A stretch of DNA of 32,000 bases, from the NCBI RefSeq assembly GCF_008000775.2, contig NZ_CP042905.2, forward strand, positions 3,120,001 through 3,152,000, read 5' to 3'. Both the position numbers and the translations under genes were made by a program. The DNA is from Promethearchaeum syntrophicum (GTDB lineage Archaea; Asgardarchaeota; Lokiarchaeia; Sigyniarchaeales; Promethearchaeaceae). The notes under the pieces were generated by a model, which saw only the letters and a program-made list of their open reading frames with translations, did not search any database and was not told where the DNA came from. Positions 9,262-30,111 of the stretch are shown piece by piece (positions within the stretch are counted from its first letter, which is position 1; every line of letters starts with the position of its first letter).

Positions 9262-11313
9262 TTAAGAAATTGAATAAGTACGAGTCGCATTTTCGAAATC
9301 CAATTCTAATGTTTGAGATTCGAATTCAATGAGTGTAGTATTTGTTCCAAATATTTGATAACAAAAATCGTTATCAAATCGGGGAAATGGGCCTAAATCT
9401 ACCTCTGAACCATTTGAAGTCATTGGTCCATCCCATGCGACAGTGATAATTCCTTGGGAAGGAGAATCATAAACTATATCAAATCCTACTGCCAATTGGT
9501 TCACTTTTACTTCCGCATCTAAAATTTCTTCAATGAATGCATCAAAAGTTGCATAATCCTCAACATTCGCTAATTCTACGATGTAAGCATTTTTTTTTCC
9601 GAAAGATTTGAGTTCAATATCAGATTCCCAATGTGTTTTCTCATGAGAATAGAGGGCAATGTAACTATCGTTTTTAGAACCAAAGGTCCATTTTCCATGC
9701 TGTTCAACCGAATCAAAAGCCCATTGAGGAAAATAAGCATGAGTATATGGTTTAAACTCAAGATAAAGAAATACTATTTCACCTATCAACGAAGTTGCTA
9801 ATCGATCATATTGGAATATACCAACATTTTCATGTAATGTTGCTCTAGGTTTCCACCCGCCTGTGAATTCTTGAGGACTTACACCTCCAGGAGAATTTGT
9901 ATAGACAATGGCAGTTTCATCTAAACTTGCTTGCCAGATATGTTCTTGTAATCCAGCCATTCCTTTATGATAATCTTGAGCACCTGAAAGCTGATAATAT
10001 GGAGTCCGATAGGTATAGGTACTTACAGATTCTAAACACGTTCCTTGGGTTACAATCTTTAATTTTTCACAAAATTCACTGAGTGTGGTTCCATGAATCG
10101 TCCCCCCAATATTTAGGAGATCTAAAAACATAGCATCATTAAAAATTAACTTTGTTTTAATGTCATATTCTTCCATTAATCTTACAGATGCATCAATTAT
10201 TGGAGATGAGGCAGGAGCTGACATTGGCCACCAAAACATAAGATCATCTTCGGATGTATAACCCAAGCCGTAAGTAGGACCATCAGCTAAATTTAAACTA
10301 CTCCTTTCTTTATGTTCATTGTTGGTAGCTGCAAATTCAGCGATATCTTCTAAAATAGGAGGTGGAACGTATTTTTCGCTAGCTGCAATTGAAATTGCAC
10401 CGCGGTTATTTCCATCATTGATATTATGTTTGCCTATTCCAAGTAATACCCATGCAGATTCAGAGGGAGATTCTCGACTTGCCGGAGAATCTATTGAAGT
10501 TCCCACTTGTCGACTATCCTCTGTACGTCCATGGGTGGTTGCGTAGATGCTGTGGTAAAAATTATTTGCAAAATCAAAAGCAATGAGATCTACTAACATC
10601 ATAGCTTTAGTGGAAATGGATTCATCTTTGGAAAATTCAACTAAATTCATTAAAGCGATTAAATCTAATGTAAAATAAATATTCGAATGCCATTCTGAAA
10701 ATCCAAATTGAGCACGCCACCCTATCCAACGATTTATCAAAGGAATTGCATGATTAACATGCTCAATACCAGTCATATTTGAATTTGTAAAAGTCTCGTT
10801 TGGATATAATTGTCCAGCCAACAATTCGGCAGTGTGAAAAAGAATCATATGATTTTCTGTCCAAAATATCATATTATCTGAGTTAGGTTCAGTGAACCAA
10901 TATTTAAAATCAAGAACAGTTTGCTTTAAATCCATTTTCAATTCAGAACTTAGAATGTGTGTTACATTATCAAAGTAGAGCATTCGTAAATATGCGTTTA
11001 CATCAAAATCTGAAGTATCTTCAAAGTTATTTACATCCTCAAGAGTATTTCGTATAATAGTTTCATTTATGGGTAATCCTAGATAAATCCGTGCTACTTG
11101 GGCATGAAACCCATTATTTTCATGGGTACCATTAAGATAAAATTTTTGGCGTTCAGTGAAATTAAGATGTGGATATTGTTGTAAATCTTTAAAATAATTT
11201 GTATTTTGAGATTTCGGAGCATTTATGCTAAATTCAGTTAAAGAAAATATAGGAATGAGCATAACTGCTAAAATCACACTAATTTTCGCAAATTTTTCTG
11301 TTAATTTTTTCAT
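9262..11313 (-). CDS. Secreted or membrane-anchored paralogue (683 aa) of the 2071-4086 family; tentatively an extracellular polysaccharide lyase-like enzyme
   Basis: N-terminal MKKLTEKFAKISVILAVMLIPIFSLTEFS is a signal peptide or anchor. It shares the same collinear conserved blocks as the 671-aa paralogue. It has about ten N-x-S/T sequons (NFT, NGT, NET, NVT, NET, NMT, NDS, NTT, NAT...) against about four in the cytoplasmic copy. SD AGGGTAAT precedes the ATG at 11313. Confidence 0.6.
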   Translation of the reverse strand: MKKLTEKFAKISVILAVMLIPIFSLTEFSINAPKSQNTNYFKDLQQYPHLNFTERQKFYLNGTHENNGFHAQVARIYLGLPINETIIRNTLEDVNNFEDTSDFDVNAYLRMLYFDNVTHILSSELKMDLKQTVLDFKYWFTEPNSDNMIFWTENHMILFHTAELLAGQLYPNETFTNSNMTGIEHVNHAIPLINRWIGWRAQFGFSEWHSNIYFTLDLIALMNLVEFSKDESISTKAMMLVDLIAFDFANNFYHSIYATTHGRTEDSRQVGTSIDSPASRESPSESAWVLLGIGKHNINDGNNRGAISIAASEKYVPPPILEDIAEFAATNNEHKERSSLNLADGPTYGLGYTSEDDLMFWWPMSAPASSPIIDASVRLMEEYDIKTKLIFNDAMFLDLLNIGGTIHGTTLSEFCEKLKIVTQGTCLESVSTYTYRTPYYQLSGAQDYHKGMAGLQEHIWQASLDETAIVYTNSPGGVSPQEFTGGWKPRATLHENVGIFQYDRLATSLIGEIVFLYLEFKPYTHAYFPQWAFDSVEQHGKWTFGSKNDSYIALYSHEKTHWESDIELKSFGKKNAYIVELANVEDYATFDAFIEEILDAEVKVNQLAVGFDIVYDSPSQGIITVAWDGPMTSNGSEVDLGPFPRFDNDFCYQIFGTNTTLIEFESQTLELDFENATRTYSIS

Positions 11314-11374
11314 ATATCTAAATTACCCTTTAAATTCAAAAATATTTACATATTTAGTTGATAATTATGATATC
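11314..11374. promoter_or_regulatory. Divergent promoter region between the minus-strand redox/lyase-like operon and the plus-strand eda-kdgK operon
   Basis: This is a 61-nt A/T-rich spacer. tttacata at 11345-11352 resembles the archaeal TATA consensus TTTAWATA. It sits about 25-30 nt before the eda ATG at 11375, which has no SD and may be leaderless. The evidence is weak because the whole window is AT-rich. Confidence 0.3.
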
Positions 11375-12013
11375 ATGAATTATTTTTCAGAAACCCTAAA
11401 AAAATATTTTTTAATCCCAGTTGTTTCAATTGAGAGTTTAGATAAAATTGCTCCACTGACACAAACATTGCAAGCGGCCGGTATAAAGTTTCTGGAAATA
11501 ACCTATCGTAATAAAAATGCGAGTGAAGCCCTTAAAATTCTTCAAAATAATAATTTTAATATGATAATTGGAGCAGGAACGATTCGAACTCTTGCCCAAG
11601 CAGAGGAAGCAATAAAATATGGAGCTAAATTTTTGGTGAGTCCTGGATTTAATAAAGAAATTATACATTTTGCTGCAAAACGGAATATTCCATTTGTTCC
11701 AGGTGTCGACTCTACCCTAAGTATTGAATTAGCTAATTCAGAAGGAATTAGTTTGTTAAAATTTTTTCCAGCAGAGATATCTGGAGGCATAAAATGGTTG
11801 AAATCTATTAAAGGACCATATCATGAAATAAAATTTATTCCCACAGGAGGGATTACTCTTGAAAATTTGGATCTCTACGTTAAACTAACGAATGTTGCAG
11901 GGATCGGAGGATCATTTCTTGCCCCTAAAAGGCTCATCTTGGAAGATAATTGGGATGAAATAGCTTTAATCTGCACGAAAGCAATAAAAATAGTTGAATT
12001 AGCTAGAGGATAA
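11375..12013 (+). CDS. eda: 2-keto-3-deoxy-6-phosphogluconate (KDPG) / KHG aldolase, Eda type (class I)
   Basis: LEITYRN, GAGTIRT, FLVSPGF, PGVDSTLSIE, and LLKFFPAEISGGIKWLKSIKGPYHEIKFIPTGGI...GIGGSFLAP align almost residue-for-residue with E. coli Eda (..[36 protein letters not shown]), including the Schiff-base Lys context. I use ATG 11375 rather than the track start 11225, which overlaps the divergent gene. Confidence 0.9.
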   Translation: MNYFSETLKKYFLIPVVSIESLDKIAPLTQTLQAAGIKFLEITYRNKNASEALKILQNNNFNMIIGAGTIRTLAQAEEAIKYGAKFLVSPGFNKEIIHFAAKRNIPFVPGVDSTLSIELANSEGISLLKFFPAEISGGIKWLKSIKGPYHEIKFIPTGGITLENLDLYVKLTNVAGIGGSFLAPKRLILEDNWDEIALICTKAIKIVELARG

Positions 12014-14267: not shown

Positions 14268-14338
14268 AAATAGTAAACTACAGTGTAAGGTAAATTTTCC
14301 TAACTTTTTTTAATTAACTTTACTTCTTCGCATTAATA

Positions 14339-15541
14339 ATGAAAAAACCGTTTTTTCCTTTAGCGGTTCTGTTATTTTTAATTTCGATCTCAACTATCGC
14401 TGCGTTAACCGCTAATGATTCTCCTATTCTTGTAGAGGGGGCTGATTGTGTGGGATATCACGGTAACACATTCTTAAAAACTTCTTCACAGTTGAATTAT
14501 GGAGGAGCAGCTCATGTAGATGAAGAATTAGAATTTTCAATTGATTTTTACATCTTAGCGAATGGGATGATATTTAATGCAACTGTCGAATTATATAATT
14601 TTCCTGGAGATCTAACTATTCAAGAGGGGCAATCCCAACAGAATAAGTCCGAAATGAATTTCGATAGTTTCACACCCACGTGGAAAATTTCTGGAAATAT
14701 TGAGGGAAATTTCACTTTTAGTATCAAATCTACAGTCACCGTTAAATACATACCTTACCATTCGAATTATATAGCCACTTATGAATATCTCCACACCGGG
14801 TCATTCGCTGTATCAGAAAATCCTAACGATCCCCCATATTTATTAGATAATTCACAAGAAGAAGAAGGAATTAAGCCTCCATTTGATTGGAAAATTGTCC
14901 TTGGTCAGATTTTAGGGTTTTTTTCAATAATTTTAATATATTTTTGCATTCAATTGGGTATACCTGAAAGAAAGGCATGGATCCGAAAAAAAATGGGTTG
15001 GTCTGCCAAGCATTTAAGAGAAACTCATTGCGATTTAGGTTATTTGGCGATGGCAACCATTATTCTCCATAATATCATTTTATCTCTATCCTCATTATGG
15101 GGGTTCTATTTTAAATGGTTTCAATTTTATCCTACATTTTACGTTTTCAGAGAGGGATGGAATGGTATATTCGTGGGATTGGATTTGGCAGTATTTGGAT
15201 CACTTATCTTTATAATTGCTACAATAACGGGAACATTTTTCAAAAAGATAGCGAGAAAATTCGGATTCCGAACTGCCATTTTTACTCAACAGATTTCTTA
15301 CATTGCTTTAATCATATCAGTAATTCATGCTATCTTAAATGGTTCATGGACAAGGGATTACCCAATTCTCTTGATCATACAAATAATTATGGTAGCAGAA
15401 GTCCTTATTTCCCGTTTAATTGCGTATGCTCATGCTTATGATTTGAAATTAAGTAAAATCAAACCTGCGTCTGATCTTGAAAAAGCTTCTGATGAAATTG
15501 CAATCGAAATTTCACAAGATGAGTTTGATAGGAGTCAATAA
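14339..15541 (+). CDS. Membrane protein with a signal peptide, a ~170-aa extracytoplasmic domain and a C-terminal multi-helix domain resembling the ferric-reductase/MsrQ (YedZ)-type heme-b transmembrane domain
   Basis: Signal peptide MKKPFFPLAVLLFLISISTIAALTA. The extracellular part carries sequons (NAT, NKS, NFT). The helix ...KHLRETHCDLGYLAMATIILHNI has two His separated by 13 residues, the H-x13-H spacing of ferric-reductase-domain heme ligands. A further helix carries a His (LIISVIHAILNG). The fold assignment is tentative. Confidence 0.6.
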   Translation: MKKPFFPLAVLLFLISISTIAALTANDSPILVEGADCVGYHGNTFLKTSSQLNYGGAAHVDEELEFSIDFYILANGMIFNATVELYNFPGDLTIQEGQSQQNKSEMNFDSFTPTWKISGNIEGNFTFSIKSTVTVKYIPYHSNYIATYEYLHTGSFAVSENPNDPPYLLDNSQEEEGIKPPFDWKIVLGQILGFFSIILIYFCIQLGIPERKAWIRKKMGWSAKHLRETHCDLGYLAMATIILHNIILSLSSLWGFYFKWFQFYPTFYVFREGWNGIFVGLDLAVFGSLIFIIATITGTFFKKIARKFGFRTAIFTQQISYIALIISVIHAILNGSWTRDYPILLIIQIIMVAEVLISRLIAYAHAYDLKLSKIKPASDLEKASDEIAIEISQDEFDRSQ

Positions 15542-15545
15542 ATGT

Positions 15546-16013
15546 ATGTGGTTACTCATTCTTCATGTTTTCATTAATGTTCTAGGATTAGTTTTTCTCA
15601 TGGCAGGTTCTTTTCAAATTTTGATTAGTTCTAGCAAAAATTCATCAACCATCCAATCGGAGGAATTAGATAATTCTTTCATAGAAAATAACAATGGAAA
15701 ATCAAAAGAAGTTCGAAAGAGTAAAAATAAATTAATTGAAATAGGTTGGTATTTGTATACTTTTGGAGTTATTTTGGGTGCATTTCAAGCTAAAATAACA
15801 GTTGGATATTATTGGACTTGGGATCTTAAGGAAATTTTTAGTCTACTATCCATTCTTGGATATTTTAGCTATATAATAATAGAAATGAAATGGAATAAAC
15901 GAGTTAAACAATTTCTAATTTTAATTAGTTTGATACTGACTATTATCACTGTGATTATTCCCGCTATCGCTTATTCTTACCACAATCCATTTACTTTAAT
16001 TGGATTTAGCTGA
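15546..16013 (+). CDS. Minimal (155 aa, about 4 TM) cytochrome-c-assembly/heme-handling protein of the CcsA/ResC type (WWD domain)
   Basis: GAFQAKITVGYYWTWDLKEIFSLLS matches the core of the CcsA tryptophan-rich motif (..WG.YW.WDPKE.W..). There is a His in TM1 (LILHVF) and a His after the last TM (AYSYHNPF). I prefer ATG 15546, which starts 4 nt after the upstream stop codon ends and has GGAG 12 nt upstream, over the overlapping TTG at 15477. Confidence 0.65.
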   Translation: MWLLILHVFINVLGLVFLMAGSFQILISSSKNSSTIQSEELDNSFIENNNGKSKEVRKSKNKLIEIGWYLYTFGVILGAFQAKITVGYYWTWDLKEIFSLLSILGYFSYIIIEMKWNKRVKQFLILISLILTIITVIIPAIAYSYHNPFTLIGFS

Positions 16014-16132
16014 TTCATTTTTGATTTTTTCAAGAATATTTAATTTATACTATGGAAATTGGATTTTTTTTCCCATTTAATTCCCAATTTGTAAAAAAAA
16101 AAGCTAAAAAGCTAAAAATCATTGGTAAACTT

Positions 16133-16585
16133 ATGGATTTAATGAGTTTCGAAGAATTTTCAAAAAAAAAGAGTTCACTTATTCCTTTATTGCAAAAAAT
16201 TCAAGAAAATTACGGATTTTTGTCTGCTGATGAGATGCAAAAAGTTTCAGCCTATTTAGAAATCCCGTTAAGCAAAGTTTATGGTGTGGCTACTTTTTAT
16301 TCGCAATTTAGATTTAGAGCCTTAGGAAAATTTGCTATTTCAATTTGTCATGGAACTTCTTGTCATGTTAATGGTTCTGTTGATATTGCTCAAATATTTA
16401 AAGACGAATTTGAAATTGACGAAGGAGGTATAACACCAGATGGATTAGTTTCTTTAGAAAGAGTTGCATGTTTAGGATGTTGCAGTATTTCTCCCGTGAT
16501 ACAGATTAATGATAAAATTTATGGACATTTAAATCGGAAAAAGGTTGAAAAATTAATTAAAAAATTAAAAGCAGGAGATTTGTAA
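16133..16585 (+). CDS. NuoE/HndA/HydC-like [2Fe-2S] thioredoxin-fold subunit
   Basis: IPLLQKIQENYGFLS...VATFYSQF, ICHGTSCHVNG and ACLGCCSISPV give the C-x4-C...C-x3-C cluster pattern of the 24-kDa subunit family. I prefer ATG 16133 (MDLMSFEEF...) to the track start 16052, whose extra 27 residues are low-complexity. The start remains uncertain. Confidence 0.85.
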   Translation: MDLMSFEEFSKKKSSLIPLLQKIQENYGFLSADEMQKVSAYLEIPLSKVYGVATFYSQFRFRALGKFAISICHGTSCHVNGSVDIAQIFKDEFEIDEGGITPDGLVSLERVACLGCCSISPVIQINDKIYGHLNRKKVEKLIKKLKAGDL

Positions 16586-18391
16586 ATGGTTCAAAACATT
16601 AAAAGACTTACTGTTGGAATGAATTCTTGCGGAATCGCAAACGGTGCAGAAGATTTATATAATATATTGTCTCAAAAAATAGAAGAAAGTAATCTTAAAG
16701 TTCCACTTATACAAGTTGGATGTATCGGAATGTGCTATCATGAACCACTTATCGACGTAATTACTGAAGATACGATTTATACTTATGGGGATGTAACTGA
16801 AAAAAAACTAGATAGGATTTTTGAAGATCATATACTAAATGGAAATATTATAGAAGATTGGATAGTAAAGAAAGACTCCTTTAAAGAAAATATTTTTGCG
16901 ATTGAAAATCGAACTACTTGGGATATTGATAATTTCTTCAAGAAACAAAAAAAAATTGTCTTAGAAAACTCCGGCTATATCAATGCAGAAAGTATTAAAG
17001 AATATATTGAATCAGGGGGATATCAGGCTTTAAAAAAAACCCTTCAAATGAATCCTGAAGAAGTAATAGATGAAGTTTCAAAATCGGGATTAAGAGGACG
17101 TGGTGGAGCAGGATTTTCAACTGGATTGAAATGGAAATTTACTCGAAAAGAGGATTCTAAAATAAAATATGTTATATGTAATGCAGATGAGGGCGATCCA
17201 GGAGCATTTATGGACAGAAATGTTATGGAAGGTGATCCTCATAGAGTAATTGAAGGAATGATAATTTGCGCTTACGCAATAGGTGCCCCTGAAGGTTTGG
17301 TTTACATTAGAGCAGAATATCCGTTAGCAATAAAAAGATTAAAAATTGCGCTTAAATCCGCTCATGAAAATGGATATCTTGGAGACAACATCCTAAATTC
17401 GGGTTTCTCATTTGATATTACAATAAAAGAGGGCGCAGGAGCTTTTGTTTGTGGAGAGGAAACTGCTATGATTCATTCAATTGAGGGGGATAGAGGAATG
17501 CCTACTTCAAAACCACCATTTCCGGCTCAAAAGGGAGTTTGGGCATATCCTACGAATATAAATAATGTGGAAACTCTCGCAAATGTTTCTTGGATTATCA
17601 GAAAGGGATCTCAAGCTTTTGCAGATATTGGAGTTGGTAAAAGTAAAGGCTCAAAAGTTTTCGCACTAGCGGGAAAGATTAAAAGAGGGGGGAACGTAGA
17701 AGTTCCAATGGGAATAACATTAAAAGAAATTTTGATTGATATTGGTGGGGGGACGAAATCAGGAAGTGATGTAAAAGCAATTCAGCTAGGAGGCCCATCT
17801 GGAGGATGCATTCCGGGTTCACTGCTCAATCTCAAAGTTACTTACGAAGATATTGCTGCAACAGGTGCAATCGTGGGGAGTGGAGGAATGATAGTAATGG
17901 ATGAAAGCACATGCATGGTAGATATTACTAAATTTTTCTTAGATTTTACTGTTAAAGAGTCTTGTGGAAAATGTGTGTTCTGTAGAATAGGTACAAAAAG
18001 AATGTTAGAAATACTACAAAAAATCACAGATGGAAATGGCACTTTAGATGACTTAGATAATCTATTAGATTTATCTGAAAAAATTAAGAAAGGGTCACTT
18101 TGTGGTCTTGGAAAAACTGCACCTAATCCAGTTTTAACGACATTAAAATATTTTACAGATGAATTTAAAGAACATATTGAGAACCATAAATGCAGAGCGG
18201 GTATTTGCAAACCATTAATTCACTATGAAATTACTGACGACTGTATCGGGTGCACTTTATGTGCCAAAAAGTGCCCCGTTCAGGCAATAGAGGGAGAAGC
18301 GAAAGAAAAACACTTCATTATTCAAGAAAAATGTTCCAAATGTGGAACTTGTTATAGTATTTGTCCTTCAAAGGCAATTAACATTATCTAA
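16586..18391 (+). CDS. NuoF/HndC/HydB-like NAD(P)H- and FMN-binding subunit with an N-terminal thioredoxin-like domain and a C-terminal 2x[4Fe-4S] ferredoxin domain
   Basis: GLRGRGGAGFSTGLKWKF (FMN site), VICNADEGDPGAFMDR, ESCGKCVFCRIG...CGLG (N3-type 4Fe-4S), and C-terminal CIGCTLCAKKCP / CSKCGTCYSICP. SD GGAG lies 8 nt upstream. The start abuts the nuoE-like stop. Confidence 0.9.
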   Translation: MVQNIKRLTVGMNSCGIANGAEDLYNILSQKIEESNLKVPLIQVGCIGMCYHEPLIDVITEDTIYTYGDVTEKKLDRIFEDHILNGNIIEDWIVKKDSFKENIFAIENRTTWDIDNFFKKQKKIVLENSGYINAESIKEYIESGGYQALKKTLQMNPEEVIDEVSKSGLRGRGGAGFSTGLKWKFTRKEDSKIKYVICNADEGDPGAFMDRNVMEGDPHRVIEGMIICAYAIGAPEGLVYIRAEYPLAIKRLKIALKSAHENGYLGDNILNSGFSFDITIKEGAGAFVCGEETAMIHSIEGDRGMPTSKPPFPAQKGVWAYPTNINNVETLANVSWIIRKGSQAFADIGVGKSKGSKVFALAGKIKRGGNVEVPMGITLKEILIDIGGGTKSGSDVKAIQLGGPSGGCIPGSLLNLKVTYEDIAATGAIVGSGGMIVMDESTCMVDITKFFLDFTVKESCGKCVFCRIGTKRMLEILQKITDGNGTLDDLDNLLDLSEKIKKGSLCGLGKTAPNPVLTTLKYFTDEFKEHIENHKCRAGICKPLIHYEITDDCIGCTLCAKKCPVQAIEGEAKEKHFIIQEKCSKCGTCYSICPSKAINII

Positions 18392-18403
18392 GGTGGAAAA
18401 AAA

Positions 18404-21337
18404 ATGAAAATAAAATTGAATGGAAAAGAAACAGAATTACAGAAAAAAGAACCTTTATTTGATTTTCTTAGAAAAACTGACCAACATATTCCAGGAATGT
18501 GCAAACATGTAGGAAACGATCCCTTTGGATCATGTAGATTATGCTTAGTAGAAGTGAACAATAAGATTATACCATCATGTTCTTACTATCCGAATGAGAA
18601 TGATACAGTTAATACCTTAAAAGAAGATGTAATTGATATCCGAAAATCTGGTTTAGAATTAATGCTATCTAATCATATTGGAGATTGTATAGGCCCCTGT
18701 CAAGTTGGATGTCCTGCAGGGGGAGATGTCCAAGGGTATCTTGCTTTAATTGCTAACGGTCATTATCATGAAGCAGTAAAATTAATGAAAGAAAAATATA
18801 TTCTTCCCGCAGTTCTAGGTAGAATTTGCCCTGCTTTCTGTGAAATGGAGTGTAGAAGAAATATTGTTGATGAACCACTTGCAATCCGTCAAATTAAACG
18901 GTTTGCTGCAGATTATGATTTAGAAAACAATCCATGGATGCCTGAGATCCCACCATCAACGGGAAAGAAAATCGCCGTTGTTGGAGGGGGACCTGCAGGA
19001 CTTTCAAATGCATTTTATCTTAGATTAATGGGTCATGATATAACAATATATGAATCTATGCCAGAACTTGGAGGAGTATTAAGATATGGTGTTCCTGAAT
19101 ATCGATTACCAAAAAAATTAGTCGCAAAAGATATCGCCACAGTTATCAACACCGGAATTTCTGTAAAAAATAATTGCACTATAGGAGTTGATGTCACTCT
19201 TGATCAATTAAAGCAAGATTATGATGCAATTTTTCTATCTATTGGAGCTTGGAAAAGTAGGCTAATGAAGATTGAGGGAAATAACCTCCCAGGCGTAATG
19301 CAAGGTATAAATTTTCTTAAGAAATTGAACTTGGGCGAGAAAATCGATATTGGAAAGGAAGTTGTAGTTGTAGGTGGCGGTCATAGTGCTATGGATGTTG
19401 CAAGATCAGTTAAAAGAATGGGTTCCAACGTGACTGTTGTATATAGACGATCAAGTGAAGAAATGCCCGCTAAAGATGAATTGGAAGAAGGGGAAGAAGA
19501 AGGCGTAAATTTTATATTTTTAGCGAATCCCGTGAAAATAATTGGCAAAGAAAAAATCGAAAGCATTGAACTTATTAAGATGAAATTAGGAGAACCGGAT
19601 GAAAGTGGTAGGAGAAGACCGATTCCAATTGAAGGCTCAAACTATACGATAAATATAGATAATTGTATATTATCTATTGGACAAATATCTGATGAAGATA
19701 TCATTCAAAAATTTGGATTAGAATACAAATGGGGAAAAATCAATTATAATCCCCTTACATTTGAAACGGATTCACCAGGAGTTTTTGGTGGTGGTGATCT
19801 TGTTTTAGGCACTTCATCAGTAATAGAATGCATAGCAACGGGAAGAAAAGCAGCAGATATGATGGATAAATATTTAAATGGAAGTCTTGAGAAAACCATA
19901 ACTCTTCTTACTCATCCTAATAGACATATTGAAGAAATCTTGTCAGATTCAAAATTGAGAAATATTTTCTTTAGAAATTCACAATATAATCATTGGAAAG
20001 ATGTTGATGAAGAAGATTACAAAGATGTTGAAAAATTAGAGAGAATGAAAGTTAATTTACGAGATCCTAAAGAAAGAAACAGAGATTATAATGAAGTTGA
20101 ACCAACTTTCAATGAGAACCAAGTTGTAAATGAAGCTAAACGTTGTATGACTTGTGGGTGCTTAGATGCTTTTGAATGTAAATTAAGAGATTATTCAACT
20201 ATTTATCAAGCGAAACAAGACACATATAAAGGAGAAGTAAATAAATCTGAAATTGATGATTCTCATCCAAATATCCATTATGATAAGAATAAATGCATAT
20301 TGTGTGGAAGATGCGTTGAATTAACAAATGAATTGACGGGAGAGGGCTTAATTTACTTTCAAAACCGTGGATTTACTACTGAAATTTCTACACCTCCTGA
20401 AGTTTCATTTAATAAAGTGAATAGTCATTTCATCGGGAACTTTGTAGATGTATGCCCAACTGGAGCTTTTAGTGAAAATTTGAAATTTAATAAACCGGGT
20501 CCATGGGAATTAGAAGAACATACAACAATTTGTAATGAATGTGGTTTTGGCTGTCAAATGAAAGTAAAAACATACATGAATGTCCCAATAACAGTAACTT
20601 CAGGGGATGAATTCTGGAATAGGGAACTTCTTTGTGATAATCCGCGATTTAATCGTAAATGGGAACATAAAATTAAAAAACCTTTACTAAAGCAAAATGA
20701 TAAATTTTTAGAAATTACAGATGAAGAAGCAAAAAATATTCTCAATGAACATCTGGAAAACCTAGTTATTGTTTTAACACCTGATATATTAAACGAGGAA
20801 GCTTCTAAAATAATTGAAATAGGTAAAGGATTAAATGTTGAAATTGTTGGGTTATATAAAAAGGGTATTTCTAATATTAAATATACAGAAATAAAGAATT
20901 TTAAAAGAATTAAGGTAGATTGTGATGGGGATAAATATCCAATGCTTAAACCTCTCCTATTTGCAGCAAAAAAGACTGGTTCAATAATAACTAACGAAAA
21001 TTATGATTTAGTCATTACTGAAAAACCATTCAATAATAACAACATTCCAAGTTTAATATTGCACGAAGGCATTAATGAAGTTGGCTTACTTAAATTGGGA
21101 ATTTCTAACGAGATTCCAAAATCTTCAAATTATTTAATCATTGGAGATATTGATAAGAAATTTGATGGATTTACTATAAATTTAGGAAAAAATGAACATG
21201 CCGATTTAATTTTACCGAAATCATCATGGATAGAACGCGATGGAACCATTTATAATTCAGAAGAAACTAAAATGAAAGTTAACAGAATAAATTTGGGTAA
21301 AAATCTGGATGAGATTTTAATTTCATATTTAAAATAA
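18404..21337 (+). CDS. 977-aa fusion protein: plant-type 2Fe-2S domain, then a GltD/NfnB-like Fe-S plus FAD/NAD(P)H module, then NuoG/HydA-like Fe-S domains, then a 4Fe-4S molybdopterin-type domain with a short non-catalytic remnant
   Basis: CKHVGNDPFGSCRLCLVEV...PSC (2Fe-2S). GDCIGPCQVGCPAGG...LGRICPAFCEMECRR (GltD N-terminal Fe-S). KKIAVVGGGPAGLSNAFYL, VVVVGGGHSAMDVARS and GVFGGGDL (two dinucleotide folds). HPNIHYDKNKCILCGRCV and VDVCPTGA (NuoG-like). CNECGFGCQMKV (Mo/W bis-PGD-type 4Fe-4S). The remaining ~250 aa are too short for a catalytic molybdopterin domain. SD AAGGTGGA lies 6 nt upstream. Confidence 0.85.
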   Translation: MKIKLNGKETELQKKEPLFDFLRKTDQHIPGMCKHVGNDPFGSCRLCLVEVNNKIIPSCSYYPNENDTVNTLKEDVIDIRKSGLELMLSNHIGDCIGPCQVGCPAGGDVQGYLALIANGHYHEAVKLMKEKYILPAVLGRICPAFCEMECRRNIVDEPLAIRQIKRFAADYDLENNPWMPEIPPSTGKKIAVVGGGPAGLSNAFYLRLMGHDITIYESMPELGGVLRYGVPEYRLPKKLVAKDIATVINTGISVKNNCTIGVDVTLDQLKQDYDAIFLSIGAWKSRLMKIEGNNLPGVMQGINFLKKLNLGEKIDIGKEVVVVGGGHSAMDVARSVKRMGSNVTVVYRRSSEEMPAKDELEEGEEEGVNFIFLANPVKIIGKEKIESIELIKMKLGEPDESGRRRPIPIEGSNYTINIDNCILSIGQISDEDIIQKFGLEYKWGKINYNPLTFETDSPGVFGGGDLVLGTSSVIECIATGRKAADMMDKYLNGSLEKTITLLTHPNRHIEEILSDSKLRNIFFRNSQYNHWKDVDEEDYKDVEKLERMKVNLRDPKERNRDYNEVEPTFNENQVVNEAKRCMTCGCLDAFECKLRDYSTIYQAKQDTYKGEVNKSEIDDSHPNIHYDKNKCILCGRCVELTNELTGEGLIYFQNRGFTTEISTPPEVSFNKVNSHFIGNFVDVCPTGAFSENLKFNKPGPWELEEHTTICNECGFGCQMKVKTYMNVPITVTSGDEFWNRELLCDNPRFNRKWEHKIKKPLLKQNDKFLEITDEEAKNILNEHLENLVIVLTPDILNEEASKIIEIGKGLNVEIVGLYKKGISNIKYTEIKNFKRIKVDCDGDKYPMLKPLLFAAKKTGSIITNENYDLVITEKPFNNNNIPSLILHEGINEVGLLKLGISNEIPKSSNYLIIGDIDKKFDGFTINLGKNEHADLILPKSSWIERDGTIYNSEETKMKVNRINLGKNLDEILISYLK

Positions 21338-21447: not shown

Positions 21448-22137
21448 ATGTCTAGAAATGAAGTGTCAAAGACAAAGAAATTTAGTCTCCCACAGATAAT
21501 TTTCATTTCTTTGATGGCTACAGCTAATGTGGGTTTTGATCTTTTGGTAAGCCCCGGTTTTATTGCTTTAACAACTCATATTGTAGCGGGGTTGCTAATA
21601 ATGGTCCCGATTAATTTTCTTTTTATTGCACTTACGAAAAACACTGTTGATAAGTTTGGGACAATAACCATTTATATGATCGTTTTCGGTGCAATTTCAT
21701 CACCGTTACCTTTTTGGGGCGGAACTGCAGGCATTTTTAAGTTGATTTTAGGATTGATTATTGGAGTTCTTTTAGATTGTGTTTTTCATTTTAAAAAAAT
21801 TGCTTTAAAAATTGTAATGGGAGCTATTCTTGGATCAATTATTTGGTGGCTACCGACTTTTATTATATGGAAATTATGGAATTTATCAATTGTTGAAGCA
21901 ATGAGTAACATGTTAAAAGCAGGAACTCAACAATTTTCTATGGGAAATGGATGGATCGATTTGTCTGGAATTTTGGAATTACCAATAACCGAGTTGAATT
22001 ATGAATTAGTCAAATTTGCAATTATTTGCGGCGTGATTTCTTCGATCCCGGTCTTTTTTGCGTGTATAATTGGATACCAAATGTTCCTACAAATTAAAAA
22101 AACATCAATATATGAAAGATTTACAAATTATCAATAA
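21448..22137 (+). CDS. Polytopic membrane protein, candidate substrate-capture (S) component of the adjacent ECF transporter
   Basis: The 229-aa protein has about 6 hydrophobic helices and lies immediately upstream of EcfA/EcfT-like genes. No specific S-component family recognised, so the substrate is unknown. Confidence 0.5.
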   Translation: MSRNEVSKTKKFSLPQIIFISLMATANVGFDLLVSPGFIALTTHIVAGLLIMVPINFLFIALTKNTVDKFGTITIYMIVFGAISSPLPFWGGTAGIFKLILGLIIGVLLDCVFHFKKIALKIVMGAILGSIIWWLPTFIIWKLWNLSIVEAMSNMLKAGTQQFSMGNGWIDLSGILELPITELNYELVKFAIICGVISSIPVFFACIIGYQMFLQIKKTSIYERFTNYQ

Positions 22138-22154
22138 AAAGTAGTGAAAATTGA

Positions 22155-22886
22155 ATGAATGAAAAAGATTATAATCCAATTATAGAAATTGAAAATCTTT
22201 CATTTGCCTATAAGAATGACTGTTGGATAATAAAAGAAGCAAATTTTACAGTAAATAAAGGCGAAATTCTTGGAATTGCAGGTCCTTCAGGAATTGGAAA
22301 AACAACTTTATGTTACATATTAAAAGGAATTATCCCACATTCAATTCGAGGAAATTTAGAAGGTAATATTACAATTAATGGCTTAAACATCAAAAAACTG
22401 AACATTTCAAAAATTGCCCGTTCAGTAGGAATGGTATTTCAAAATTTAAATGCTCAATTGTTTAGTAATACGGTTAAAGAAGAGATTGAATTTGGGTTAA
22501 AAAATCTAAAAATGGATCATTCTTTGGCAATTCCAGCCATGAAGAAATTTAAGATTGAAGATCTATCAAATAAATCACCTATAAATTTATCAGCAGGGCA
22601 AAAACAAAGAGTAATTTTAGCTTCTATTCTGGCTTTAAAACCAAAAATCTTAATTTTAGATGAACCAGCGGTTTATTTAGATCCTCCGAATAAAATACGA
22701 CTAAAAGAATGGTTAATAGAACAAAATCAAAAATTTGATACAACAATTCTAATTGCAAGTAATAATCCTTGGTTAATTGGTGAAATATGTGATGAAATTT
22801 TATTTTTTAGAAATAAAACAATAGAAAAAATGCATAAATCTGTAGTTATGAAGGAAGAAACAAGCTGGAGATGGACATATACATGA
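22155..22886 (+). CDS. ecfA: ABC ATPase of the ECF/CbiO type (energy-coupling factor A component)
   Basis: Walker A GPSGIGKTT, Q-loop VFQN, signature LSAGQKQRV, Walker B ILILDEP. Its size (243 aa) and neighbours fit the EcfA/CbiO family. Confidence 0.9.
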   Translation: MNEKDYNPIIEIENLSFAYKNDCWIIKEANFTVNKGEILGIAGPSGIGKTTLCYILKGIIPHSIRGNLEGNITINGLNIKKLNISKIARSVGMVFQNLNAQLFSNTVKEEIEFGLKNLKMDHSLAIPAMKKFKIEDLSNKSPINLSAGQKQRVILASILALKPKILILDEPAVYLDPPNKIRLKEWLIEQNQKFDTTILIASNNPWLIGEICDEILFFRNKTIEKMHKSVVMKEETSWRWTYT

Positions 22887-23467
22887 AGAAAGAATATAGA
22901 TATAAGTATGGAATCCATCCAGCTATAAAGTTAACAATATTAATTATATTCAACATTTCCACCTTCCATCCACTGTTTTATGATTACCGTTGGGGATTTT
23001 TAATTTTTGAAATCTTATTAGCAGTAATGATTCGATTAAATTTCCAGAAATTGAAAGGATATATTAAATTCTTGGTTATTAATTTCCTTGGGTTTTATTT
23101 TTTATTCTATTTTATTGATTTTTCTTGGATCCAAGCACTATTACATCTTTTTGATTACTTCTTAACCATTTCCATAATTTCCCTCCAAACTTTTATCTTT
23201 TATTCAACAACGCCGCCCTTTGAATTAATTATCGGACTAAAAACCCTAAAAGTGCCAGGGCACATAGCATTTGCAATCAGTATTGCAATTTCATTCCTTC
23301 CTATCATTTCAAATGAAATTAGTGAAGTATTAGTTATGCAACAATCCCGAGGATATAAATTTAGATTAATTAATCTGAAACCAATTATCATTCCGACGAT
23401 TTTAGGAGTTATTGATTATTCGACAAACCTTGCGATGTCTTTGGAAGCAAGGGGTTTTAAAATTTAA
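22871..23467 (+). CDS. ecfT: ECF transporter transmembrane (T) component, CbiQ/EcfT family, short form
   Basis: Hydrophobic 198-aa protein overlapping ecfA by 16 nt. C-terminal ..NLAMSLEARGFKI contains the conserved Ala-Arg-Gly coupling motif of EcfT. A second motif-like stretch is EVLVMQQSRGY. Confidence 0.75.
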   Translation: MDIYMKKEYRYKYGIHPAIKLTILIIFNISTFHPLFYDYRWGFLIFEILLAVMIRLNFQKLKGYIKFLVINFLGFYFLFYFIDFSWIQALLHLFDYFLTISIISLQTFIFYSTTPPFELIIGLKTLKVPGHIAFAISIAISFLPIISNEISEVLVMQQSRGYKFRLINLKPIIIPTILGVIDYSTNLAMSLEARGFKI

Positions 23468-27050: not shown

Positions 27051-28952
27051 ATGTCGACCAATAGCAATTTTTTTCAATGTAGCAAATGTAAAAGTATCTT
27101 TTTGATTGAACCTGAAAGTTCAAAATCATGTAAAAATTGCGGTAAAAAAAATCTGGACCCAATTGATGGCAGATTTATACTTCGGTGTAAAAAATGCGGT
27201 TTAACTCAGAATAAACCAGCATTTTCGAAATTGCATAGCGAGAAGGCTTTAAAATGTCAATCATCTACATGTAAAGGTGCAATTAAATTAATTCAATTAA
27301 GAAAACGAAGTACTTTATCAACCCCAATTGCAATTCAACCAAAACAGCCCCCATCACCAAAAATTGATATTGGAAAGTCTATAATAAAGACTTTAAAAGA
27401 AGTTCATCCTCCTGTGCCGAAAAGAAGGGAATTACCGAAAAAACCTTTTGTAAATAATTATAAACCTTTTCCTTCAGATGATGTTTCCAAAGATAAGATT
27501 GATGAGGAAACCTTTATGCCTTTTCCCTCTTCTGCTCCGAAACCTAAAGTAAAATCATTACCAACTGTATCTCAAATTAAGAATCATCCTGGAATACAAA
27601 TTGGAGATAGGTTAAAATTGAATGAGGATATGTACGAGATTACAGCTAAAATCGGAATTGGGGGAATGGGAGCGGTACATCTGGCTCGAAATATTAAAAC
27701 TAAAAAAATGGTAGCTTTAAAAGAATTTTTCTATACAAGGTATCATGATCCCGAGAGTGGGTCAAATTTTTGTAATAAATATTGGGTTAGAGAATCCGAA
27801 ATTACCGAAATTCAAAGTAAATCACCTGAAACTTCGATGCACCTTTTAGGATCTTTAATACTTGAACAATTTCCAATACCCGAATATTATATTTTCCTTG
27901 AATATATCGATGGAATTGCATTAGATAAATGGTACACAGATCGTTATAAAAATATAGATCAATTAAATGGCAAAGAATTACGAATGCTAATAAAAGATAT
28001 TTTAATGCCAATTGCACGACATATGTATTACGTGCATCAACAAGGAATAGTTCACCGGGATCTTACTGTTCAAAATACAATAATATTAAATAAAAGATTT
28101 TCAGATAAATATACGCCTGTTATTATTGATTGGGGGGTTGCCAAGGAAGTAGGAATAGATAATATGTTTAAACCCCGAAAACCCTATTATGTAACATCTG
28201 CACCAGAAGCTACTGGGATAAGAAATAGAGGAACACCACCAGAAATAATGGCAGGTTTTGAACCTATTGCAGCGTCTGATATTTATATGTTTGGACATAT
28301 GATGTTCTATTTATTCAGCGGAGGGCATTATGCAAGTGCTGCTGCTACAAATGAGGATTTTGTTCTTCACCCAGGAGATTATAATCCCGATTTACCTCCA
28401 GAATTTACAAGACTAGTGGAATTCTGCACCCAATATGAACCTGCTGATCGAATGGAAAATATGGTTAAAGTTTATGATGCGTTAAATTGGTTATATGATG
28501 CTTCGCTAGGAAAGCATAAACATGGAATTGATGAAAATCAATCCCAATTATTTTTATTTTGTGATTATAATAATGGTTTAATTCCATTATACAGTAAAAA
28601 AGTCATAAAAATTGGACGAGATGAAGTTATTGCTGCGGGTAAGAACCATGATATGGATGGTCATCTTCATAGTGCATTGATTCCGACATCTGAGGGAAAA
28701 TTTTCATTTGAATTATATGTTGAAGGAAATTATGTTTATATTCGCGATAATTTTTCAAAATTGGGATCATTTATTTCGAATTTAACTTCAACTAATCAAC
28801 AAGTTTATAATAATGTCCCAATAAAAGGTTTAGATAACGTTGTTATTCAATTATCTGACTCCAATATTGGTAAAACGTCCATTGAAGTTCCATTTGTAGC
28901 ACCGGACGGTAAAACTTATAGAATTACATTTAAAATCGTTAAGAAAAAGTGA
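27051..28952 (+). CDS. Multidomain Ser/Thr protein kinase: two N-terminal zinc ribbons, a Pro/Lys-rich linker, a Hanks-type kinase domain and a C-terminal FHA-like domain
   Basis: Zinc ribbons: CSKCKS...CKNCGKK and CKKCGL...CQSSTCKG. Kinase: IGIGGMGAVHLA (G-loop), MVALKEF (VAIK Lys), IVHRDLTVQNTIIL (HRDLxxxN), IIDWGVAKE (DFG-like DWG), GTPPEIMAG (APE-like), DIYMFGHMMFYLFSG. FHA-like: IKIGRDE...HLHSALI...YIRDNFSKLGSFISN (compare G-R...S-x-x-H...D..S.NGT.vN). The FHA assignment is moderately confident. Confidence 0.9.
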   Translation: MSTNSNFFQCSKCKSIFLIEPESSKSCKNCGKKNLDPIDGRFILRCKKCGLTQNKPAFSKLHSEKALKCQSSTCKGAIKLIQLRKRSTLSTPIAIQPKQPPSPKIDIGKSIIKTLKEVHPPVPKRRELPKKPFVNNYKPFPSDDVSKDKIDEETFMPFPSSAPKPKVKSLPTVSQIKNHPGIQIGDRLKLNEDMYEITAKIGIGGMGAVHLARNIKTKKMVALKEFFYTRYHDPESGSNFCNKYWVRESEITEIQSKSPETSMHLLGSLILEQFPIPEYYIFLEYIDGIALDKWYTDRYKNIDQLNGKELRMLIKDILMPIARHMYYVHQQGIVHRDLTVQNTIILNKRFSDKYTPVIIDWGVAKEVGIDNMFKPRKPYYVTSAPEATGIRNRGTPPEIMAGFEPIAASDIYMFGHMMFYLFSGGHYASAAATNEDFVLHPGDYNPDLPPEFTRLVEFCTQYEPADRMENMVKVYDALNWLYDASLGKHKHGIDENQSQLFLFCDYNNGLIPLYSKKVIKIGRDEVIAAGKNHDMDGHLHSALIPTSEGKFSFELYVEGNYVYIRDNFSKLGSFISNLTSTNQQVYNNVPIKGLDNVVIQLSDSNIGKTSIEVPFVAPDGKTYRITFKIVKKK

Positions 28953-28959
28953 AGATAAG

Positions 28960-30111
28960 ATGAGTGATACTACATCAAATGAAAATTCAAATGAGTTACG
29001 GGCAATATTATATTCAATTGCAAGACAAGACAGACCAGATTATGTTTGGCAATGGTTTTTTCGATATTTTGCTGGAGCGGGCTTAGAACCTGAACGATAT
29101 TTTAAGAATGAACCTAATGATCTCCTTGAAAATTATTTTACGTTATTTTCTATGGGTTTGGAATTGTTAAAAAACGAATATTCACGTGGAAAATATAATA
29201 AATTTATCAGGGATGAAAATCCTTCAAATTCTACCTACTATTTTGTAGGTGATACTCATGGTAGTTTTGTTGATACCTACCAAATTATTGATTATCTTAT
29301 TAAAGCTTTTCAAGTTAATCCTAAGATCAAAGTTGTTTTTTTGGGGGATTATGTTGATCGTAATCCATTTGATCTACAAAATTTAGCCTTTATTTTATCA
29401 TTTTGGATTTTATTTCCACAAAATGTTTTTTTAATAAGAGGAAATCATGAAGATTCATCTGTTTGCTCCAGATATGGCTTTTCTCAACACCTTTATGATA
29501 AATGCATATCAAAGGAGCGATTTACTCCAATTTGGGAACTTATTATTGAATTTTTCAGTAAACTTCCCCTTGGTTTTATGTGTAAAGTTGGTGATAAGAA
29601 GATTTTGGCTTTACATGGAGGAATTCCATTTGATGTTAATAGTTATCGTCCTTTAAAACTTCAAGATATTGAACCTAAATTAAATTGTTATCAAAAAGAA
29701 CATTTTGATATGGATACATTTTCACAAACTATGTTATGGGCAGATCCAGATCCTCAATTATTTGAAGGTGTTGCACCTAATCCGAAAACGGGTAGACCTC
29801 GTTTTTCTGAACAAGCTTTCAATGATTTTATGGAATTAAATCAATTTGATTTACTTCTCCGAGGTCATCAAAAATTTTCAGCTGGTTACAATATGCTTTG
29901 GAACAATAGATTAATTACACTTTTTAGCACTTCTACCTATGATGGAAGAACTATTGGCAAAGCTAAATTCCTCAGAGTCCATCCAGAGATTAATTATGAA
30001 CAAATTGGAGAAGAAAGGCTTGGAAAAGGATATGGGATTTTAGATGTTAATACAGATTTCTTAAATTCTCAAATAATCAAATATTATAACGGTAAAATTG
30101 AACAGAAATAA
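28960..30111 (+). CDS. PPP-family Ser/Thr phosphoprotein phosphatase (PP1/PP2A-like metallophosphoesterase) with a ~90-aa N-terminal extension
   Basis: GDTHGSF (GDxHG), GDYVDRN (GDxVDRG-like), RGNHE (GNHE), ALHGG and LLRGHQ, all in canonical order. It starts 7 nt after the kinase stop. Confidence 0.9.
   Translation: MSDTTSNENSNELRAILYSIARQDRPDYVWQWFFRYFAGAGLEPERYFKNEPNDLLENYFTLFSMGLELLKNEYSRGKYNKFIRDENPSNSTYYFVGDTHGSFVDTYQIIDYLIKAFQVNPKIKVVFLGDYVDRNPFDLQNLAFILSFWILFPQNVFLIRGNHEDSSVCSRYGFSQHLYDKCISKERFTPIWELIIEFFSKLPLGFMCKVGDKKILALHGGIPFDVNSYRPLKLQDIEPKLNCYQKEHFDMDTFSQTMLWADPDPQLFEGVAPNPKTGRPRFSEQAFNDFMELNQFDLLLRGHQKFSAGYNMLWNNRLITLFSTSTYDGRTIGKAKFLRVHPEINYEQIGEERLGKGYGILDVNTDFLNSQIIKYYNGKIEQK

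Follow-up and report, generated by a model that had tools for sequence, protein, structure and literature searches.

The stretch of DNA considered here, called the window below, comprises 32,000 nucleotides of the Asgard archaeon Promethearchaeum syntrophicum MK-D1 (contig NZ_CP042905.2, positions 3,120,001 to 3,152,000 of the forward strand). On its + strand lie two adjacent genes, gene 1 and gene 2, for membrane proteins that may handle haem together. Gene 1 (14339..15541, with a TAA stop at 15539-15541) encodes a protein of 400 aa that combines a membrane ferric-reductase domain (FRD) with an inserted extracellular beta-sandwich. Gene 2 (15546..16013, +) encodes a four-helix protein of 155 aa, which belongs with the WWD haem-handling proteins and has about half the size of CcsA; it will be called mini-CcsA. 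The junction between the two (15530..15545, +) is made up, as read from the sequence, of an AGGAG located 11 nt upstream of the gene 2 ATG, the stop codon of gene 1, and the 4-nt spacer ATGT. The initial annotation, which was made from the sequence alone, had placed gene 2 at 4 nt after the gene 1 stop and had given it a length of ~155 aa, and both its coordinates and its frames are correct. Such a tight junction suggests translational coupling. A longer, TTG-initiated open reading frame (ORF) for gene 2, starting at 15477, finds no support: the homologues begin at MWLL, and the upstream extensions are not conserved.

No description of the pair was found in the literature on haem, cytochromes, or this gene pair in MK-D1 and the Lokiarchaeia. 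A survey of transporters mentions only “putative haem exporters of the Haem Handling Protein family” in Asgard proteomes (PMC7997004), and the “haem pocket” labels carried by PAS domains of Asgard kinases turned out to be generic domain annotations. Where public names are given, homologues of gene 1 are called “hypothetical protein” and those of gene 2 “CcsA”.

The nature of the membrane domain of gene 1 can be approached through its relatives. There are 21 close homologues, all from Promethearchaeota, and a family-profile search of 1.84 billion proteins gave 38 representatives. The initial annotation had noted a likeness to ferric reductases, and the family as a whole can be linked to the Pfam profile Ferric_reduct (PF01794): the window protein scores 14.3 bits, under the cut-off of 28, and spans profile positions 2-120 of 121; 18 of the 21 relatives match over the whole profile, likewise below the threshold (best E 3.4e-5); and the remote members P0097 and P0101, reached via the family profile, exceed the threshold with 35.9 and 39.3 bits, respectively. 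The fold points in the same direction. A first full-length model built with AlphaFold2 (AF2) had a mean predicted local distance difference test score (pLDDT) of 65.6 and led Foldseek to generic Ig-like sandwiches only; the membrane part became informative after re-modelling of residues 178-400 with a 46-sequence alignment (pLDDT 91.6, predicted template modelling score 0.83). In the comparison of this model with the PDB by Foldseek, four STEAP1 chains came on top (8ucd, 6y9b; template modelling (TM) score 0.51-0.53, probability 1.00), followed by the NOX of S. pneumoniae, with the dihaem fumarate-reductase cytochrome b at rank 6 and NOX5 at rank 8; overall, these matches have TM scores of 0.44-0.53 and probabilities of 0.99-1.00, with modest E-values (5e-3 to 0.6). 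Sequence searches of the PDB with the gene 1 profiles A1 and A4 returned nothing relevant. The FRD membership of gene 1 rests on transitive profile and fold evidence, and homology of its membrane domain to FRDs is very likely.

FRD helices 2-6 (aa 184-374; 14888..15460, +) were delimited from the AF2 model, Foldseek, and Pfam Ferric_reduct. They carry the residues that, in NOX2, correspond to the four haem-binding histidines, H101/H115 and H209/H222 (PMC3591440). The equivalent of the first pair is H230-x13-H244 in helix 3, THCDLGYLAMATIILHN (15026..15070, +); that of the second is Q317-x12-H330 in helix 5 (15287..15328, +), in which Gln replaces the inner His. H230, H244, and H330 are invariant across 26-46 diverse members, some of them only ~20% identical, which makes the H-x13-H that the initial annotation had picked out more than a matter of chance. 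Q317 and H330 are invariant in 17 full-length members, and the position of Q317 is occupied by His in P0080, P0089, P0093, P0096, P0097, and P0101; the ancestral pattern would therefore be H-x13-H plus H-x12-H, exactly as in NOX2. Short FRDs, such as STEAP and YedZ, retain just two or three of the four His and only the surface-proximal haem, a conserved Gln replacing the inner His of helix 5 (PMC3591440). In gene 1, the inner site is altered in that H230 faces Q317 and no second His. The protein thus has, most probably, a single haem b, located towards the outer face and bound via H244 and H330, the sole complete site. At the cytoplasmic end of helix 3, next to H230 and also opposite Q317, lies C231 (15026-15031 with its neighbour), which is present in at least 90% of the close homologues and in most of the remote ones.

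The N-terminal hydrophobic helix (aa 5-24; 14351..14410, +), which AF2 models over residues 5-24, had been taken for a signal peptide. It is probably FRD helix 1 and would act as a signal anchor rather than being cleaved. When it is counted as helix 1, helices 3 and 5 are the ones that carry the His, which is the arrangement of all FRDs. Moreover, the membrane-domain-only relatives P0076, P0082, and P0083 retain this helix and continue with a short Gly-rich loop, from which the outer domain of 160 aa can be read as an insertion into the loop between helices 1 and 2.

Two observations concern particular relatives. In P0093 (712 aa), the same membrane domain, with all four canonical His, is fused to an extracellular region rich in Cys, in which Pfam recognises four MopE-type “putative metal-binding” repeats (E 3e-22). 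In a Promethearchaeum metagenome-assembled genome (MAG), the gene 1 homologue (locus L001, 1260-2456) is interrupted by an in-frame TAA that follows “...NGSWGH”, within the outer loop that joins helices 5 and 6. Since similarity continues beyond it in the same frame, a sequencing error, a pseudogene, or a recoded stop is possible.

The inserted domain (aa 25-183; 14411..14887, +) is an extracellular beta-sandwich, modelled by AF2 with a pLDDT of 80-91 over ~aa 45-170. It has four N-x-S/T sequons (N26, N80, N102, and N124), which agrees with the sequon-bearing outer domain described initially. Its listed Foldseek matches are generic sandwiches only, of the Ig-like, macroglobulin (MG), TRAP-beta, and CARDB types; among them, there was no DOMON, cytochrome f, NEAT, or cupredoxin domain, and the AmoB chains 9leg_B and 9cl6_A did occur. 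Across the 17 full-length members, down to ~20% identity, only six residues of the outer domain are conserved: G34, C37, H41, G123, H141, and Y148; C37, H41, and H141 are regarded as the conserved polar ones. Two of these, C37 and H41, are invariant and lie in C37-V-G-Y-H41 (14447..14461, +), within G-x-D-C-x-x-x-H, where AF2 predicts a short helix at residues 37-41. In the family as a whole, the motif reads G-x-(D/E)-C-x-x-[Y/F/A/E/H]-H, such that the fourth position of what would be CXXCH is Y, F, A, E, or H, and C37 has no conserved Cys partner in the outer domain. H141, in H-P-x-Y (14759..14761, +), is conserved in 16 of 17 sequences and is shifted by one residue in the remaining one. The motif of C37 and H41 is extracytoplasmic, as it follows the N-terminal helix and lies in the sequon-bearing domain, and a WWD protein is encoded 4 nt downstream of the gene. 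C37-x-x-x-H41 is a candidate for a single-thioether haem attachment motif with H41 as the proximal ligand; H141 is a candidate for the distal haem ligand or for a metal ligand. M77 was considered as an axial ligand and rejected, for it is invariant in close homologues but not in remote members or in one paralogue of locus L009. A CcmE-like C-x-x-x-Y motif was also rejected since Y40 comes one position too early and is not conserved.

CXXCH itself is present only in relatives of the Thorarchaeota type. The outer region of these more distant proteins (P0080, P0088, and P0089, the last from a Thorarchaeota MAG) is different. In P0088, a canonical G35-N-C37-N-N-C40-H41 occupies identical positions after helix 1, and the gene for P0080 lies, in locus L013, two genes away from that for a 575-aa CcmF/NrfE-like WWD protein with the sequence “WGGLWTWDPVEN”. 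Gene 1 is not a c-type cytochrome by the CXXCH definition, and to judge from its motif, it looks like a relative of cytochromes c that lost the second Cys. In two Thor-type loci (L013 3742-5211 and L012 3175-4617), the CXXCH-type FRD gene is directly followed by a gene that, in L013, precedes the CcmF/NrfE-like gene. It encodes a protein of 480-490 aa with a hydrophobic helix at the N-terminus and with alpha-alpha toroid repeats of the prenyltransferase type; this protein may be a third component of the Thor-type variant.

Turning to gene 2, its similarity to WWD proteins, which the initial annotation had proposed, holds at the profile level: it matches Pfam Cytochrom_C_asm (PF01578) with 60.5 bits (E 2.4e-16, gathering cut-off 29.9) over profile positions 70-200 of 212. 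With the NCBIfam models, it scores 49.8 bits for the System II CcsB/ResC-type TIGR03144 (cut-off 187.6), 26 for CcmC, and 22 for NrfE, all of which fall far short of the equivalog cut-offs. A profile built from 23 homologues aligns with the CcsBA structure 7s9y in its WWD region. The WWD block itself, GYYWTWDLKE (aa 87-96; 15804..15833, +), has W90, W92, D93, K95, and E96 invariant. Alignment with three bacterial CcsA proteins (257-265 aa) indicates that gene 2 begins precisely at the external haem ligand P-His1 and that the N-terminal half of CcsA is missing. H7 (15564..15566, +) aligns with the “FVPH” of these CcsA proteins and is the equivalent of P-His1; it is invariant in alignment A5 and is kept in at least 90% of the gene 2 homologues. 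H146, in S-Y-H-N after helix 4 (15981..15983, +), is the equivalent of the second external ligand, P-His2 (compare “NSIHTY” of bacterial CcsA), and is invariant in the 23 homologues. At the position of TM-His2, a transmembrane ligand (H858 of 7s9y; “YFH” in the three bacterial CcsA), all members of the gene 2 family have Ile. The initial annotation had listed a transmembrane His and a C-terminal external His, of which the latter corresponds to H146, whereas the former does not stand, since H7 is external. The distribution of charge puts the Lys-rich loop 28-62 and loop 113-121 inside and the WWD loop and both His outside.

In a search of 5.8 billion proteins, the relatives of gene 2 formed a tight group, with E-values of 1e-22 or better, whose source-named members are Promethearchaeota; a sharp gap separates them from ordinary CcsA (E 7e-8). 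Gene 2 departs from CcsA proper in the TM-His2 position, in its length (155 aa and four helices versus ~260 aa), and in its equivalog score. We regard its identity as a WWD haem-handling protein as highly probable. As predicted from these alignments, gene 2 has kept the external haem site of a cytochrome c synthase and lost nearly all the rest.

The initial annotation had also asked whether the two genes are kept together, and every checkable locus answers that they are. Locus context came mostly from look-ups of exact proteins, scans of genome and metagenome collections having yielded four loci. Besides the window, 13 loci could be checked (12 close relatives and one at 28% identity), and in all 13, mini-CcsA comes after gene 1. 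A tblastn comparison of both proteins with all the fetched loci showed that, in L001 to L011, it does so directly, with gaps of -11 to +67 nt; the identity of gene 1 ranges there from 53 to 72%, and that of gene 2 declines in parallel. In L015, which contains the member with 28% identity, a mini-CcsA starting with “MPYRIIH...GYPWIWDPKE” follows after a gap of 34 nt. Locus L009 (5327-8333) has two tandem full-length gene 1 paralogues, one with E-C-I-R-F-H and with Ile in place of M77, the other with D-C-I-E-Y-H; they share a single mini-CcsA, whose ATG comes directly after the stop of the second paralogue. The exceptions to the pairing are the remote full-length member in L014 and the membrane-domain-only relatives in L016-L018. 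Two ABC exporters beside the L014 member were considered as CydDC-type haem exporters and rejected because they best match generic MsbA-type models.

The genes that follow the pair are less constant. NuoE and NuoF genes are found there only in the window and in L007; in the syntenic L006, an NfnAB/GltD-like set follows, an NfnA-like gene and two GltD-like genes replacing those for the NuoF-like protein and the fusion next to it. Unrelated genes come next in L001, L002, L005, and L009, an unrelated gene on the opposite strand overlaps mini-CcsA in L011, and L008 ends right after the pair. We conclude that gene 1 and gene 2 are a unit of their own, any coupling to a flavoenzyme being local at best. 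The pair is best explained as a membrane module of two genes that is complete in itself and is passed on vertically, as one, in Loki-type Asgard archaea, and it is likely, with a good deal of confidence, that the two proteins act together. On three points, the initial annotation had declared itself open to refutation, and none of the three refutes it: the membrane domain is modelled as a helix bundle, with STEAP1 and NOX as best folds, the WWD match exists at the profile level, and the genes are co-conserved.

What might the two proteins do together? The reading preferred here, the chances of which are put at slightly less than even, is that mini-CcsA presents haem outside the cell and attaches it to the CxxxH motif of gene 1 so as to produce a transmembrane wire of b- and c-type haems. 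Gene 2 would hold haem at the outer surface of the membrane and pass it to C37-x-x-x-H41; one thioether would form with C37, H41 would be the proximal ligand, and H141 the probable distal one. Electrons could then go from a cytoplasmic donor to the outer haem b, on to the external haem, and finally to an extracellular acceptor. The analysis shows the homologies, the conservation of the motifs, the predicted topology and fold, and the pairing of the genes; that haem binds at one or the other site, that a covalent bond forms, and where electrons come from and go to are inferred. The steps are not equally probable. That a haem sits on the outer domain has an even chance, and that it is held there covalently by a single thioether is a more tentative proposal, for which the odds are somewhat against. 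A single Cys cannot form the disulfide that a CXXCH can, so that a thiol-reducing partner of the CcdA/ResA type may be unneeded, and this may explain why no such gene is encoded next to the pair. It has been proposed that the distortion of haem induced by the thioethers drives the release of the product from cytochrome c synthases (PMC11727520). If so, a product with one thioether might conceivably remain bound to its synthase, as would be fitting for a pair of membrane proteins.

The fullest form of this proposal is that Loki-type Asgard archaea, including MK-D1, make a new class of surface cytochrome, in which a single-thioether CxxxH haem on a beta-sandwich is combined with a NOX/STEAP-like cytochrome b, and that the maturation of this cytochrome depends on a half-CcsA of four helices, which, with neither CcsB nor a thiol-reduction pathway, would be the smallest cytochrome c synthase known. 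In this full form, it is doubtful.

Several points weigh against the proposed attachment of haem to gene 1. The motif is not CXXCH, and bacterial CcsBA was reported to need only CXXCH for recognition, with thioether formation proposed to drive product release (PMC11727520). A Cys and two His are plausible as a metal site, too. No ResB-type Pfam match exists among the window proteins or the annotated neighbours in related loci, and a gene 2 without TM-His2 and without an adjacent CcsB/ResB leaves the passage of haem across the membrane unexplained. The L014 member has no mini-CcsA immediately adjacent to it, in a contig that ends ~380 bp past the gene. The main text of published descriptions of MK-D1 (including PMC11316595) makes no mention of haem or cytochromes, and according to one preprint, haem biosynthesis is one of the traits by which Heimdallarchaeia differ from the other Asgard archaea.

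Comparison with known systems shows how far the pair resembles them. Gene 2 shares with CcsA/ResC of System II (CcsBA, 7s9y) the PF01578 domain, the CcsA-style “W-x-W-D-x-K-E”, and the external P-His1 and P-His2, but it differs in starting at P-His1, in the replacement of TM-His2 by Ile, in the absence of an adjacent CcsB/ResB, and in having an FRD protein as a partner. The logic of the pair, a WWD protein plus a b-haem plus an anchored beta-domain, is similar to that of CcmF and of CcmC-CcmE: CcmF combines a WWD domain with a stable b-haem, while CcmC, which is also a WWD protein and has two external His but no TM-His, transfers haem to a beta-domain protein anchored in the membrane, to which the haem becomes covalently bound. 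However, the b-haem domain of the pair is an FRD, unrelated to the helices of CcmF; gene 2 scores far below the cut-offs for CcmC and NrfE; and the H/C-x-x-x-Y of CcmE is missing from gene 1.

For gene 1, the closest parallels are STEAP1 and YedZ/MsrQ, which have the same six-helix fold, no cytosolic dehydrogenase domain, and only the surface-proximal haem site complete, and STEAP2-4, which have Gln for the inner His of helix 5. Unlike STEAP and YedZ, which have Arg there, gene 1 keeps the inner His of helix 3 (H230), and this results in the pattern H,H,Q,H; unlike STEAP1 and YedZ, it also has a 160-aa beta-sandwich in the loop between helices 1 and 2 and an obligate WWD partner. The His pattern, the loop insertion, and the obligate partner are new features. 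Haem held by one Cys, as proposed for gene 1, has precedents in the (A/F)XXCH cytochromes c of Euglenozoa (including the kinetoplastids) and in haem ci of cytochrome b6. In Euglenozoa, however, it is the second Cys that is kept (XXXCH) and not the first (CXXXH), and the maturation machineries of single-thioether haem proteins are unrelated to WWD proteins. CYBDOM, in which cytochrome b561 is joined to an extracellular haem-binding DOMON sandwich, is alike in concept in that a transmembrane b-cytochrome feeds a haem on a beta-sandwich; it differs in having the b561 rather than the FRD fold and no dedicated haem-handling partner, and no DOMON was among the listed Foldseek matches of the gene 1 sandwich.

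Another possible role of gene 1, although an unlikely one, is that of a metalloreductase. The FRD would then send electrons outward, as in STEAP and FRE, and Cys37, His41, and His141 would bind, in place of haem, a metal ion (Cu or Fe) that serves as substrate or cofactor; the part of gene 2 would be confined to loading or stabilising the outer haem b, unless it is a haem-carrying redox subunit in its own right. STEAP and FRE relatives do reduce metals (PMC3591440), P0093 has the same membrane domain fused to its MopE-type repeats, a Cys and two His form a classic set of metal ligands, and the top Foldseek matches of the outer domain include no haem-binding sandwich (DOMON, cytochrome f, or NEAT). 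Yet FRD proteins elsewhere need no dedicated WWD partner, whereas mini-CcsA is linked to gene 1 in all 13 checkable loci, and there are relatives with a textbook CXXCH at the same positions, one of them near a CcmF-like gene. Moreover, the order of the ligands does not fit cupredoxin sites.

Could the pair be a minimal cytochrome c synthase that acts in trans and matures other secreted cytochromes encoded elsewhere in the genome? The haem b of the FRD would then keep the haem bound to the WWD protein reduced, which is the role proposed for the b-haem of CcmF, and the outer domain would be a chaperone like CcsB or CcmE or a covalent carrier via C37. That a WWD protein can work with a b-haem, or with a haem carrier whose beta-domain is anchored in the membrane, has precedents in CcmF and CcmC/CcmE, and gene 2 resembles CcmC in its two external His and in the lack of a TM-His. 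The idea is given little credence here. There is no CXXCH in the ORFs of at least 60 aa in the 32-kb window, where the sole near-match is the Fe-S motif CHGTSCH of the NuoE-like protein; none is annotated in the flanks of 12 related loci, as judged by Pfam calls only, without motif scans; and related Asgard lineages (Helarchaeota MAGs) are reported to be without multihaem cytochromes. The initial annotation had been right to see no CXXCH apocytochrome in the window, but it had overlooked the degenerate C37-x-x-Y-H41 within gene 1. In addition, the C/H-x-x-x-Y motif of the CcmE type is absent.

A different question, compatible with any of these readings, is whether the neighbouring flavoenzyme operon (NuoE/NuoF/GltD-NuoG) feeds a conduit that ends, at the membrane, in the pair, as the initial annotation had suggested. 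The same strand and close spacing are seen in the window and in L007, GltD-type genes adjoin the pair in L006 too, and a GltD-type gene lies ~2 kb from the membrane-domain-only relative in L016-L018. Against this, no such genes are present in the sequenced flanks of L001, L002, L005, L008, L009, and L011; the window, L007, and L006 form one synteny block and hence a single observation; and GltD-like genes, we assume, may simply be numerous in these genomes. Furthermore, two T-runs, T5 and T6 (16014..16031, +), come directly 3' of the gene 2 stop, ahead of the NuoE-like gene, and resemble an archaeal terminator; an A/T-rich gap of ~119 nt lies between gene 2 and the probable NuoE start. The suggested link is not borne out by this unconserved neighbourhood, and such a conduit is distinctly improbable. 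The least probable explanation is that the pair scavenges or detoxifies haem in a haem auxotroph, the beta-sandwich capturing external haem in the manner of NEAT, the FRD reducing it, and the WWD protein passing it to or from the membrane: this would be in keeping with the preprint on haem biosynthesis in Heimdallarchaeia, with NEAT domains being Ig-like haem binders, and with the presence, 5.4 kb downstream, of an ECF-type transporter that has an unassigned membrane component and occurs both in the window and in L006, but no WWD protein is known as a haem importer, the invariant Cys in a CXXCH-like context favours covalent chemistry, and the ECF genes are absent from most related loci.

The surroundings of the pair in the window may be described briefly. 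The G+C content is ~32% (27-38% per kb), and the + strand carries all the genes from ~11.2 kb to 23.5 kb in the order KDPG aldolase, PfkB kinase, GFO/IDH/MocA oxidoreductase, gene 1, gene 2, NuoE-like protein, NuoF-like protein, a 977-aa fusion, and the ECF-type transporter. Upstream of gene 1, the sequence has an A/T-rich box, TTTTTTTAATTAA (T7-AATTAA; 14305..14317, +), centred ~28 nt 5' of the ATG; it is a possible archaeal TATA-like promoter, and its distance from the ATG would imply a leaderless or short-leader mRNA. The NuoE-like 2Fe-2S protein has a mechanical ORF at 16052-16585 (177 aa); its probable true start is the ATG at 16133 (MDLMSFEEF) because the L007 homologue has 147 aa and the Pfam match begins at residue 34. 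The NuoF-like protein (601 aa) and then the fusion occupy 16586-21337. The fusion has a 2Fe-2S domain at its N-terminus, together with a FAD/NAD(P)H part similar to GltD/NfnB, Fe-S domains similar to those of NuoG, and a remnant molybdopterin match; to judge from their domains, these two proteins resemble a soluble complex of the electron-bifurcating NAD(P)H/ferredoxin type.

Further downstream, at 21448-23467, the ECF-type transporter (ABC ATPase plus CbiQ/EcfT component) is preceded by a gene for a 229-aa polytopic membrane protein with no Pfam match, possibly the substrate-binding S component; the same arrangement occurs downstream in L006 (15838-17849). On the other side of the pair, the - strand encodes a 683-aa protein (9262-11313) that has an N-terminal hydrophobic segment and no Pfam match; its start overlaps by 89 nt, on the opposite strand, that of the mechanical KDPG-aldolase ORF (11225-12013, +). 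The aldolase probably starts later, given its 262 aa here versus 212 aa in the L007 homologue. At 27051-30111, a eukaryote-type Ser/Thr protein kinase (633 aa) is directly followed by a calcineurin-like metallophosphoesterase (383 aa).

MK-D1 is the first cultured Asgard archaeon and the reference cultured relative of the archaeal ancestor of eukaryotes, and the published accounts portray it as a syntroph that lives by fermentation, with exchange of H2 and formate between it and its partners. A conserved module for haem handling and a transmembrane cytochrome would add to this picture a membrane redox route, possibly an outward one. Homologues of gene 1 gain a testable annotation, and a four-helix WWD protein that has the external haem site only would serve as a minimal model of the way in which haem is held and attached by cytochrome c synthases. 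The FRD family found here in Loki-type and Thor-type Asgard archaea also bears on the origin of NOX, FRE, and STEAP, the eukaryotic forms of which were previously traced to bacteria, the only four archaeal examples being attributed to horizontal transfer (PMC3591440). If the proposed surface cytochrome is real, the pair would constitute a new cytochrome c maturation system and a haem-based route of extracellular electron transfer in a lineage whose exchanges with partners are thought to be limited to H2 and formate.

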